In this document: positions 1,921-35,735 of the stretch, piece after piece
Layout: each line of letters starts with the position of its first letter
Numbering within the stretch: the first letter of the stretch is position 1
Source of the DNA: Octopus vulgaris
Lineage: Eukaryota
Reading direction: 5' to 3'
DNA length: 64,000 nucleotides
NCBI GenBank assembly: GCA_951406725.2
Contig: OX597824.1
Coordinates: 92,132,001 to 92,196,000, forward strand
Made by a program: the position numbers and the translations under genes
The notes under the pieces: model-generated
Seen by the model: the letters and a program-made list of their open reading frames with translations, nothing else
Databases searched by the model: none
What the model was told of the DNA's origin: nothing

Positions 1921-2187
1921 CATGCAAAGCGCATTTTCACTAGCGATGTCAACGCTGTTTAAGAACATCCGATTTATAGCCTCGTGGATCACATGATCAC
2001 GATATATATATACATATATATATATGTGGAGAGAGAGAGAGAGAGAGAGAGAGATTTTGAAGTGATTTACAGATATTGTATATTGAAAATAATAAGATAC
2101 TTTATTATTCTCAATAAATACATACATACATATACTCATATATATGTATATATAAATATATGGAATTTATATAGATTACTAATATAT

Positions 2188-9837: not shown

Positions 9838-10147
9838 AGAGAATTAGAAATAATGATATTTCAATTTTTGAAAACCAGTGGATGTATTCCACTGAATTTA
9901 GCTCAGCACCGAAACGTGCTGGGTTCGGCTACTCCACAATGATAAGAGGCAACCACCTCGAAACTAGTCAGTAGTTGCCAGACCAGCAACGGTAAACTGC
10001 TGACCTCCCCTGTTCGAAGGTTATAATGGACACAGTTTTGTGTGTCCAATAGCTAGCTAGAGGCGATGGTCTCTTGTAGCTAATCAACGGCAGCATTCGT
10101 CCTATTTTTCTAGACTGCCATGTTAGCTTGGCAATAACTATTAATAG
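9838..10147 (+). mobile_element. Retrozyme-like ~310-nt repeat unit, copy 1, with degenerate hammerhead (9934-9974)
   Basis: ATGATAA(9939-45)-GAGG caacca CCTC-GAAA-CTAG-TC(9969); colinear with 12361-12640; downstream hairpin GGACACA/TGTGTCC (10028-47). Confidence 0.75.
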
Positions 10148-12236: not shown

Positions 12237-12640
12237 ATAGCTAGAGGCGATGGTCTCTTGGAGCTAATCAACGGCAGCATTCGTCCTATATTTCTGGCCT
12301 GCCATATTAGCCTGCCGGTAACTATTAATATCCAGTACCGCTGCCGTAGTCTCTTTAAGTGAGACTTAGAAATATTGATATTTCTATTTTTTAAAAGCAG
12401 TGGGTGTATTCCAGACTGGTGGATTCGGCAGCTCTGCATTGATAAGTGGCAAATACCCAGAAGCTAGTCTGCAGGTGCCTGAATACTAAGGGGAAGCGGC
12501 TGGCTTCCTCGTTGAATGTTATAATGGACACAGGTTCCTGTGTCACATAGCGAGCTAGAGGCGATGGTCGCTTGGAGCTAAACAACGGCAGCATTCGTCT
12601 AATATTTCTGGACTGCCATATTAGCTTGGCGATAACTATT
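12237..12640 (+). mobile_element. Retrozyme-like repeat, ~1.3 tandem units (period 314 nt), with degenerate hammerhead (12433-12475)
   Basis: gctagaggcgatgg at 12240 and 12554, gccatattag at 12301 and 12615 (both offsets 314). HHR: TCTGCA-TTGATAA-gtgg caaata ccca-GAAG-CTAG-TC-TGCAGG. Confidence 0.75.
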
Positions 12641-17152: not shown

Positions 17153-17818
17153 GGATAAAACAGCTTTATGACATCTTCGTGTATATGGGTTCAGTTCTGC
17201 TGTGTAGCACCTTGATGAAGTGTCTTCTGTTGTTTCCTCGTGCTGACCAATGATTTATGATTGAATTTGGTTGACGGAAGCTGTTTTGAAGCCAGTCATA
17301 TAGATAGATACATACATACATATATACATACATACATACATACATACATACATACATACATACATGTCTGGCCCTTCCGTCCGGCTTTGGCCATGATAGA
17401 TCACTAGCCTCTACACACATTTTTTCTCTCCTTGTTTTTTCTGTGTCCCTTTCTGTAGAAGAGCGTATGCTCGAAATATGAAAGACTTTTTCAATCCCCG
17501 AGCGTTATACTAATACATCTGTTTGTTTTCTACACCACCTGTCTTCGTCTCATACATACATTCATACATAGATGCATGGTTATAAATGTGTGTATGTGGG
17601 GCTATGGATGGGTATGTCCTTGTGTCTGTGTTTGCAACATCCACAATCCACTTGAAATCCGGTGTTGGTTTACGTACACTTCAGTAACGTAGCGTTAAAT
17701 TCAGTTCCAGTTTTCGCGAAATATCAAACATTACTACTGGAGTTCATTTGTTAGATTAAAACAGTCCAAAATACTTCTCCAGCTTGGCTGCAGTCTAGTG
17801 ACAGACACAGGTAAAATA
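17153..17818 (+). mobile_element. Old SINE family A copy interrupted by the minimal-HHR element
   Basis: Head ggcgcaagcatggctgtgtgg at 17153; tail ctccagcttggctgcagtctagtgacagacacaggtaaaa near 17810. Confidence 0.65.
17365..17551 (+). mobile_element. Copy of the minimal-HHR element, decayed at the cleavage site, nested in the internal microsatellite of an old SINE
   Basis: ctttCTGTAGAaGAGCgtatGCTCGAAAtatgAAAG at 17449-17484; flanks align to the reverse complement of 36385-36540. Confidence 0.65.
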
Positions 17819-19730: not shown

Positions 19731-19925
19731 TCCCCCCAAAAAGCGATGAACAAACGCAAATGAAAACACCAACCCAAGGATGTGGTACATGTAAAGTAGT
19801 AGCAGACGCTCAGAGAAGGAAAAATTATGGTTTAACGTTTCGAACAAAGCTCTTCTTCAGAAACAGAGGAAAGTGCAATAGAAAAGGAAGACGGAGGAAG
19901 AAAATTGCCAACGATTCACATGTGC
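19730..19925 (-). mobile_element. Short Penelope-type non-autonomous element with canonical minimal hammerhead (19830-19864)
   Basis: Minus strand: GUUU-CUGAAGA-A-GAGC uuu GUUC-GAAA-CG-UU/AAAC; stem I GUUU/AAAC; stem III reduced to the palindrome ACGU; abuts (TA)n. Confidence 0.7.
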
Positions 19926-23251: not shown

Positions 23252-23668
23252 CTCTTTACTCTTTACTCGTTTACTCTTTTACTTGTTTCAGTCATTTGAC
23301 TGCGGCCATGCTGGAGCACCGCCTTTAGTCGATCAAATCGACCCCAGAACTTATTCTTTGTAAGCCCAGTACTTATTCTATCGGTCTCTTTTGCCGAACC
23401 GCTAAGTGGCGGGGACGTAGACACACCAGCATCGGTTGTCAAGCAATGCTAGGGGGACAAACACAGACACACAAACACACACACACACATATATATACAT
23501 ATATACGACAGGCTTCTTTCAGTTTCCGTCTACCAAATCCACTCACAAGGCATTGGTCGGCCCGGGGCTATAGCAGAAGACACTTGCCCAAGATGCCACG
23601 CAGTGGGACTGAACCCGCAACCATGTGGTTGGTTAGCAAGCTACTTACCACACAGCCACTCCTGCGCC
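23252..23668 (-). mobile_element. SINE family A, full length
   Basis: Near-identical to 1361-1772 (reverse). Confidence 0.9.
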
Positions 23669-23784
23669 TACGTTGTGTTTTTGTAGTAATGGCAATGCTT
23701 TTGTTATTATCCTGAAGGCGGCGAGCGGCAGAATGTTTAGCAGGCCTTGCGAAATGCTTATCGGCATTTGGTTCATCTTTACGT

Positions 23785-28787: not shown

Positions 28788-29455
28788 TCAGGCACTAAAC
28801 ACTAAATTTCCCATTTTATTTGGAGAAAATTTGAACCAGATTTTTAATCACAGGAATATATTAACCCGTTAATAGATTTATGATTAACGGGTTATTTCTT
28901 AATTTTCATTTACCACATTCGGATGGCTATTCATTTATTTGTTAGAACTTCACCTACCCTAGATATAAGCTGAACTGCACCCGGATCCGATCTCAATTGC
29001 CCGTTTTAGAGAGCCGGATATTTGCGATAACAAGCCATGTCTTTATGCTGTGTTAATTGATCATCAAAGAATGACAGAATCGTACAGAAAGCTGCTTCGA
29101 TAATGAAACACAATAAGCACAATATGGATCATGTGGGGAAAATGGTTAATTAAATTGTTAATTAACAAATTTTTATTGATGTTTAGGTTATTTTCGAGAG
29201 TGACGTCATCACTTGTCGCGCAGTTCTGTGATTACAACTATATTTCTACGACCCTGTCTAATTCTAAGACGCAATTTTCTCTCAAAATCTTTTAAAATAT
29301 CTCCCTGTTTCGAAATCAAGGCAGAGTGAGATTTGAACCAGGGTGCTGTATTCAGCGGACCCGATGAACACATTGACCCTTCATTGAAAATAAAAGGGAT
29401 ATAATGATAAATCTCAGAGCGAGTTATATGTCAATCGACACTGGAAAAAGTATAT

Positions 29456-29700
29456 GTATTTGTGAAGGGAGCTGACTTCTCGTCGACAACCATGATTGTC
29501 ACACGCTGACGATAGGTAAACACCTTGAAACTCGAGTCCGTGTGTATCATGAGTTGAAGACGGGGAGGATGACTTCCCTTCACAAATACTGAGAGGGCAC
29601 AGATAGTGTGTCTATAGCCAGCTGGAGGAGATATCTTCCTGGGGCTACAAACTACAGTAGCATCCACCCTTAGGGGTTAGCCATATTCAAATGGCAAATA
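29456..29700 (+). ncRNA. Type I hammerhead ribozyme at the apex of a long rod-like hairpin; retrozyme-like monomer
   Basis: Stem I CACACG(29500-05)/CGTGTG(29539-44); core CTGACGA(29506-12); stem II AGGT-aaac-ACCT closed by U.U; GAAA(29527-30); stem III AC-tcga-GT (palindrome ACTCGAGT); cleavage triplet GUC ending 29538. Stem I extends via CATGAT/ATCATG, CAAC/GTTG, CTTCTCGTC/GACGGGGAG and a perfect 15 bp GTATTTGTGAAGGGA/TCCCTTCACAAATAC. Confidence 0.88.
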
Positions 29701-29832
29701 TGCGTCACAAAAAAGGGATATATATATATATATATATACCTACATAATACTTTTGATTGTAGGTATATATGAATATAAGTAGATGCGGTATATAGTTATA
29801 AATGCATATCTATCAATCAATTAATCAATCTG

Positions 29833-35410: not shown

Positions 35411-35735
35411 GTGAAGGCACGTAGCTTAATGGTTAGAGCTTTCGACTCACGATCGAAAGGTCGTGAGTTCAATTCCCGGCGAAGCTTTGTGTCCTAGAGC
35501 AAAACACTTTATTTCACATTGTTCCAGTCCACTCAGCTGGAAAAAATGAGTAGTATCTGTATTTCAAATGGCCGGCCTTGTCACACTTTTTATCACGCCG
35601 AATCTACTTGAGAACAACGTTAAGGGTACACGTGTTTTTGGAGTGCTCAGCCAGTTGCACGTTAATTTCACGAGCAAGCTGTTCTGTTGATCGAATCAGC
35701 TGGAACTCTCATCACCGTAACCGACAGAGTGCTCT
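35411..35735 (+). mobile_element. SINE family C (tail variant shared with 52770 and 46497)
   Basis: tRNA head, gtgtcctagagcaaaacactttatttcacattgttccagtccactcagctgg, then gagaacaacgttaagggtacacgtg. Confidence 0.85.

Follow-up and report, generated by a model that had tools for sequence, protein, structure and literature searches.

In the model proposed for animal retrozymes, multimeric transcripts self-cleave, an RtcB-type ligase circularises the products and the reverse transcriptase (RT) of a retroelement copies the circle (PMC7229834). The axolotl ribozyme HHR_Amex2 cleaves 22% in 1 h as a monomer and much better as a dimer (PMC7229834); for Xenopus, one of nine predicted retrozyme dimers is reported to be cleaved in vitro and the other eight not (bioRxiv 10.64898/2026.07.22.740005). 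Both sources leave open which machinery moves animal retrozymes and whether it works from circles (PMC7229834, 10.64898/2026.07.22.740005). Marks of Penelope-like elements are copies in partial tandems, copies that are inverted and truncated, a tail on one side only and insertion at (TA)n, and a CX4CXXC linker is a Neptune-type feature (PMC8557442).

The octopus motif analysed here belongs to a dispersed multi-copy family that forms head-to-tail multimers, covaries as a hammerhead does and has a defined insertion anatomy. We consider it probable that the motif is the hammerhead of a non-LTR retrozyme, a mobile non-coding unit of about 352 nt which would spread by cleavage, circle formation and copying by a Penelope-like enzyme.

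The hammerhead motif and its copy in the window

The window, the whole 64-kb stretch of DNA analysed, carries the motif on the plus strand within a rod-like hairpin of 134 nt (29456-29589). The core C3-U4-G5-A6-C7-G8-A9, read out directly from the letters, is CUGACGA (29506-29512). The 5' strand of stem I (29492-29505) is made up of a distal helix (29492-29496), a UGU loop (29497-29499) and a proximal helix of 6 bp, in which CACACG (29500-29505) pairs with CGTGTG (29539-29544); in the 3' strand (29539-29550) a single U at 29545 forms the other side of the internal loop. Stem-loop II (29513-29526) has four pairs (29514-29525) and the loop AAAC, with U.U at 10.1/11.1 (U 29513 and U 29526). A GAAA (29527-29530) includes G12-A13-A14, which with the octamer ACUCGAGU (29530-29537) span 29527-29537; stem III has 2 bp in the monomer and 8 bp between two copies. 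The GUC triplet lies at 29536-29538, and from hammerhead numbering the cut is predicted to fall 3' of C17, at the bond 29538/29539 (unit 110/111). The rod holds 36 further pairs, the last 15 of them Watson-Crick.

An earlier note on this DNA had listed a complete core (CUGACGA, GAAA, GUC), six perfect pairs in stem I followed by an asymmetric UGU/U loop, a self-complementary octamer as stem III, and a duplex about 35 bp longer with 15 perfect end pairs; when the letters were read at these positions, everything that it gave as sequence detail proved correct. Its remark that the U.U at the base of stem II is the one deviation stood in part: the mismatch is there, but it is a trait of a whole subfamily.

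The positions C3 U4 G5 A6 N7 G8 A9, G12 A13 A14, A15.1-U16.1 and H17 are complete in the window copy, and both letters of the C3/G8 tertiary pair are there. The pair 10.1-11.1, usually G-C in type I hammerheads, is left unpaired as U.U. Both U10.1-U11.1 and U4C have been described as natural hammerhead variants with lowered activity, some of it kept (PMC3088659), and the U.U was therefore not taken to exclude membership of type I (PMC3088659, PMC7229834). A type I descriptor matched the 64-kb window at a single place, against 0.02 matches per window in 200 block shuffles, or 0.005 with a 6-bp stem I.

The window copy (29403-29708) is a 5'-inverted, sub-monomer derivative of a 352-nt repeat, with a single hammerhead and a 12-bp target duplication; window position 29429 was numbered as unit position 1. 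The left copy of the duplication (AAAAGGGATATA, 29392-29403, plus strand) has its last base in common with the element. It is followed by an inverted piece of the repeat, unit 301-326 with its 'tail' end outwards (29403-29428, minus strand; 100% identical to locus L004), and by unit 1-280 (29429-29708, plus strand; 98.6% identical to L004:1138-1489), which stops at the first of two fixed 3' ends (280-283). The right copy of the duplication (29711-29722, plus strand) runs on into a (TA)n tract. Because it is 99% identical to copies on other chromosomes, the window copy is a recent insertion. With one hammerhead only, it cannot by itself free a circle of unit length; most likely it is a dead end among the insertions, with slow cleavage at best, and would probably cut a read-through transcript only slowly.

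Other motifs were seen in the window. Two worn and more distant hammerhead-like motifs (12425-12508 and 9927-9979, both plus strand) score 21.5 and 18.5 bits with the family model and have A at core position 8, a 4-bp stem II and a 6-nt palindromic stem III; a better-kept relative with a U3-A8 core lies at L049:13-99. Minimal hammerhead-like motifs of the Penelope pLTR type, with an extra base before 10.1, G10.1-C11.1 and a short or palindromic helix III, are located at 17453 (plus), 36477 (minus) and 19860 (minus), and in L004 at about 2050-2080 (minus): the core CUGAAGA is intact at 19860, and position 6 is changed in the other three. A tRNA-like stretch with a broken acceptor stem (35415-35487, plus strand; Rfam tRNA 39.3 bits), to which a similar head is found at about 51150, is probably the head of a tRNA-derived SINE. 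A 219-nt interspersed repeat occurs as two copies in opposite orientation (1359-1577 and 23452-23670), 99% alike.

Distribution, covariation and folding of the family

The genome (2.8 Gb, 227 contigs) holds at least 40 other places at 96-99% identity to a 171-nt query (40 of 2,105 candidates scored). The repeat unit, non-coding and without LTR or ORF, is 352 nt long and arranged head-to-tail at L004, and its spacing is 350-354 nt where measured. Dispersed copies are 1- to 9-mers, the multimeric loci ranging from dimers to one 9-mer, and subfamilies are about 70-99% alike. An exact 34-mer from the family occurs 55 times. Three mutually exclusive hammerhead patterns matched 126, 1,981 and 362 times, giving 2,469 cores against 1, 4 and 1 (6) in reversed controls, and a downstream motif of the unit gave 5,250 matches against 0 in the control. 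Three divergent pattern matches (L090-L092) had no homology to the unit.

Several loci depart from the common arrangement. A 9-unit tandem array of a C.A subfamily (L207:800-3950, on C2) is without TA flanks; its units are 0-7 differences apart over 189 nt and at least 11 from other loci, and it may have been amplified locally or be a source locus. At G000:C1:20002354-20004466 a divergent subfamily forms an array of 5-6 units spaced 359 nt apart. In an old 354-nt subfamily (L146, L168, L169) some segments depart from the reference at unit 234 and enter a different shared sequence before the TA run. The insertion at L191:622-1572 has six extra 119-nt tandem repeats of unit 230-325, as if reverse transcription had restarted at the tail end.

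In the sequencing runs examined, the unit was covered and the 352-nt go-back joint was seen in four of four; the family was found under five organism labels, and none of the runs holding it was recorded as RNA. One run (X13, organism C), guessed to be RNA, gave a 383-nt contig that consists of one unit of the G-C variant plus a 31-nt wrap-around, a structure that tandem DNA could give likewise.

Covariation was analysed in 19 copies spanning the subfamilies, the truncated copies L142, L144, L148 and L168 being left out. Of 380 cells, 92.1% were paired, with 28 two-sided changes; none of 500 shuffles was as high, and slid controls gave 17-50% of cells paired. Since relatedness can inflate such counts, single events weigh more: A-U and G-C are swapped in stems I and II across subfamilies, and among the matches listed (100 of 362) an A at core position 8 goes with a U at position 3 in 90 of 100. 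The change from C3-G8 to U3-A8 is a known covariation of the tertiary pair (PMC3088659, PMC4209133). The core is conserved and covaries across subfamilies, in agreement with the conservation among paralogues that the earlier note had named as a check, and the internal loop, where a contact between loop II and stem I would be made, lies 6 bp away from the core in the aligned copies. The covariation also supports an arrangement in three helices of which helix I is the open one.

The stem III octamer occurs as ACUCGAGU, ACUGCAGU, ACUAUAGU and wobble forms, all of which self-pair; ACUAUAGU was found in 9 of the 100 A8 cores among the matches listed. Its four central letters, the loop in the monomer, vary between UCGA, UGCA and UAUA with self-complementarity kept. 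An octamer that stays self-complementary in three versions is what pairing between units would select, which argues for cleavage by a double hammerhead: the family covaries like a hammerhead, and the pattern points to cleavage as a dimer. The proposal of the earlier note, a type I hammerhead of the metazoan retrozyme or Penelope kind that probably acts as a dimer and would cut at 29538/29539, fits a tandem-capable repeat of about 350 nt with palindromy kept in stem III.

Positions 10.1/11.1 read U.U, A-U, G-C, C.A, C.U or U-A across copies and are mismatched in 15 of the 19 aligned ones, and whole subfamilies with U4C in the core have amplified. From these two observations, cleavage may be weak or partly dispensable in the family. 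The U4C subfamilies seen (for example L143, L144, L149 and L165, in G000) often have C.A or C.U at 10.1/11.1.

Folding of the 134-nt strand gave -61.2 kcal/mol (z -7.76), none of 200 shuffles being as good, and the outer helix of the rod is kept, with 9-18 pairs, in 19 of 19 folded subfamily copies. For the monomer, the hammerhead fold lies 5.1 kcal/mol above the minimum-energy fold, which is not a hammerhead. In the ensemble the GAC of the core pairs with the GUC triplet with a probability of 0.71-0.74, and stem III has a probability of 0.0; as modelled, the monomer ensemble of the window copy favours an inactive fold. A natural 352-nt stretch folded as a circle gave -120.3 kcal/mol with 64% of it paired (z -7.3, 60 shuffles). 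Among 13 natural tandem pairs, the double hammerhead was better than two single ones in seven and was the minimum-energy fold in three, all of the G-C subfamily; it was disfavoured in six, in at least three of which the upstream unit is 5'-truncated and lacks the 5' arm.

The earlier note had also named a match to Rfam Hammerhead_1 as a check, and the lack of any match as one of three refuting observations; formally this one applies to the window copy, which returned no hammerhead at the gathering level and none at E<=10. A G10.1-C11.1 sister copy does match the full model (RF00163, 32.2 bits, E 2.2e-4, model positions 1-45 of 45), at a score that falls short of the gathering score of 34. The Hammerhead_1 model can miss members of a family with thousands of cores in one genome.

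Insertion anatomy and the proposed route of movement

Of 109 loci examined, 106 had a match, and the count of ends covers 91 insertions whose likeness to the reference is 84% or more. Their 140 3' ends fall at unit 280-283 (64), at 324-329 (57) or elsewhere (19), and 104 of the 121 fixed ends adjoin TA repeats. The two fixed 3' ends are about 43-46 nt apart. Where 3' ends point outwards on both sides of an insertion (n=50), 35 insertions have one of each kind and 2 have two alike. The free 5' ends lie dispersed over the unit. Target duplications of 10-15 bp were found in 7 of 116 insertions; the others have no readable duplication or pure TA. The family thus shows partial tandems, copies that are inverted and 5'-truncated, a tail on one side and a microsatellite as target, which is the pattern of Penelope-type insertions.

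Among the matches to the tail that were listed, about 43 of 100, counted by eye, continue into the next unit and the others stop; none of the 100 continues into other shared sequence. Since a unit either stops or enters the next one, no unique head exists, and the template would be a circle or a multimer. The predicted cut site is read through in 96 of 100 copies among the matches listed (100 of 1,023), which argues against linear cleaved monomers as the usual template. An enrichment of 5' ends at the cut site was considered and rejected: 4 of the 100 listed copies (of 1,023) have a junction at most 30 nt upstream, and at most one of these fits. L173, L029 and perhaps L176 start at unit 111-112. 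Distances within and between loci, compared for 201 units, showed young copies to be nearly identical everywhere and did not single out a rolling-circle origin.

The route that we propose would start from transcripts of multimeric loci, in which neighbouring units would fold into a double hammerhead through the palindromic octamer. Cuts after GUC would release 352-nt monomers, and a host ligase of the RtcB type could close them into highly paired circles. Priming would then be the work of a Penelope-like element of Neptune type that targets (TA)n: its RT and GIY-YIG endonuclease would start on the circle or multimer at either of the two fixed sites, unit 283 or unit 326-329, and would often do so from both strands of the target. 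This would leave copies, the window copy among them, that are truncated at the 5' end, are inverted in part, span from 0.3 to several units and have target duplications of 10-15 bp.

A more far-reaching reading, which we put forward tentatively and judge somewhat short of probable, is that the family records in DNA how an animal retrozyme moves, a (TA)n-targeting Penelope-type enzyme copying a circular 352-nt RNA with two-strand priming at sites about 43-46 nt apart, and that its subfamilies show selection for dimer-only, deliberately weakened cleavage. The latter part draws on the three versions of the palindrome, on the drift of 10.1/11.1 through G-C, A-U, U.U, C.A and C.U, and on the U4C and U3-A8 cores, each of which has been amplified. 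If this is true, the 'tail' that Penelope elements have on one side would be accounted for as a second priming site.

The hammerhead of the U.U, C.A and U4C subfamilies might instead be a weakened passenger, the spread coming from uncleaved multimeric read-through transcripts without circles. We regard this as unlikely. The mismatches at 10.1/11.1 in 15 of 19 aligned copies, the amplified U4C subfamilies, the inactive monomer fold and the likeness within and between loci, from which no rolling-circle origin was singled out, are all in its favour, as is the read-through of the cut site in 96 of the 100 copies listed; a re-ligated circle, however, predicts that read-through equally. Moreover, core, stems and palindrome still covary across subfamilies 70-90% alike, and the natural variants U10.1-U11.1 and U4C keep some activity (PMC3088659).

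The partner that would mobilise the retrozyme was sought among the top GIY-YIG matches (20 loci and 10 wider stretches, of 6,136 candidates). The genome holds intact 781-aa RT + GIY-YIG frames with the CX4CXXC linker, and in one Neptune-like family the elements likewise stop at (TA)n and have a tail of about 38 nt. In a young Neptune-like family (L051:906-5672, L052, L053), an intact 781-aa frame of this kind is preceded by a frame of 330-380 aa that matched nothing in Pfam; the family's pseudo-LTRs, 456 bp long, are 99.3% alike, and the pLTR carries a minimal hammerhead with a U3-A8 core. No autonomous partner sharing sequence with the unit was found among the Penelope elements sampled. A 681-nt stretch of L004 had only a 19-nt chance match in 20 GIY-YIG loci, and the family covariance model, run on 50 other loci and the window, returned retrozyme fragments and distant hammerheads and no coding element's terminal repeat. 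A bacterial promoter scan of the sequence gave chance-level results, the model being bacterial and the host an animal.

It is quite improbable that the copies, rather than representing an independent non-coding unit, derive as truncated ends (pseudo-LTRs) from an autonomous Penelope-like element. The insertion anatomy is indeed Penelope-like (PMC8557442), Xenopus retrozymes are derived from pLTRs in a preprint (10.64898/2026.07.22.740005), and at L077 the unit comes after a Penelope ORF, both on one strand. Against this, the units join head-to-tail, and tails enter the next unit (about 43 of 100 listed) and no other shared sequence. The unit loci lack the RT + GIY-YIG ORF between pseudo-LTRs by which an autonomous Penelope element is recognised, and in three sets of loci a Penelope ORF is nearby in only 5 of 86, 2 of 30 and 1 of 30, the single case of the third set coinciding with L145. 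L077, tried as an element made of ORF plus unit, was rejected as a nested insertion: the unit sits at an internal (TA)n within an older family, and the other copies of that family are without it; L069, tried likewise, ends in its own TA run before the ORF.

Two further explanations are very improbable. If the 134-nt hairpin were a miniature DNA transposon with 15-bp terminal inverted repeats, or a satellite, with an incidental hammerhead match, the 15 perfect terminal pairs and the one 9-unit array (L207 at C2) would be accounted for, but homology passes both arms in the copies, so that the arms are not element ends, the ends are asymmetric with 5' truncation and inversion, and the core covaries. 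A takeover of the window copy by the host as a regulatory ribozyme, for which no support was found although the core is intact, is opposed by the 99% identity to copies on other chromosomes that marks a recent insertion, and the window's frames of at least 120 aa look by eye like translations of microsatellites and repeats, a host intron being possible.

Comparison with described retrozymes and Penelope-like elements

By every feature examined the family is a non-LTR retrozyme, with cleavage and circular RNA predicted from sequence: it is multi-copy and dispersed, has no LTR or ORF, has target duplications longer than 4 bp and has a highly self-paired monomer. As described in PMC7229834, the non-LTR retrozymes of animals are likewise non-coding, tandem-capable units within 150-450 nt with one type I hammerhead each, and they likewise have GC below 50%, long target duplications and a highly paired predicted circle. 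The closest match, compared by description, is the axolotl HHR_Amex2 / Rtz_353, a 350-nt retrozyme that shares both the U.U at the foot of stem II and the tetraloop-capped 2-bp stem III (PMC7229834); the Mytilus retrozyme, also compared by description, has a similar unit size of 350-390 nt (PMC7229834). The octopus family differs from the retrozymes as described in PMC7229834 in its mostly short dispersed insertions, in its inversions and in its two fixed 3' ends at (TA)n, and its circle and cleavage are putative.

The hammerheads and termini of Penelope-like elements (PMC4209133, PMC8557442, 10.64898/2026.07.22.740005) are likewise of type I, with a palindromic helix III read as a dimer and with the U3-A8 swap, and these elements also form partial tandems, include inverted copies with 5' truncation, carry a tail at just one end and target (TA)n. 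In contrast to them, the octopus unit has no ORF, and its hammerhead is canonical rather than minimal (6-bp helix I with internal loop, 4-bp helix II). Its tail of 43-46 nt compares with 30-40 bp in the Penelope-like elements described, and the termini of those Penelope elements that were sampled in the same genome are not homologous to the unit.

In the literature on hammerheads and retrozymes of cephalopods and octopus no such family was found; paper supplements or repeat databases may list it. The kind of element is already known, and the ribozyme itself is no surprise because its class has been described; what stands out against the known systems is the clear covariation series and the end rule. 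The family's value is that of a test system, in which very young retrozyme copies with a measurable end rule stand beside intact Neptune-like elements, and of a natural mutagenesis series of one hammerhead, with evidence in its letters that argues for cleavage as a dimer.
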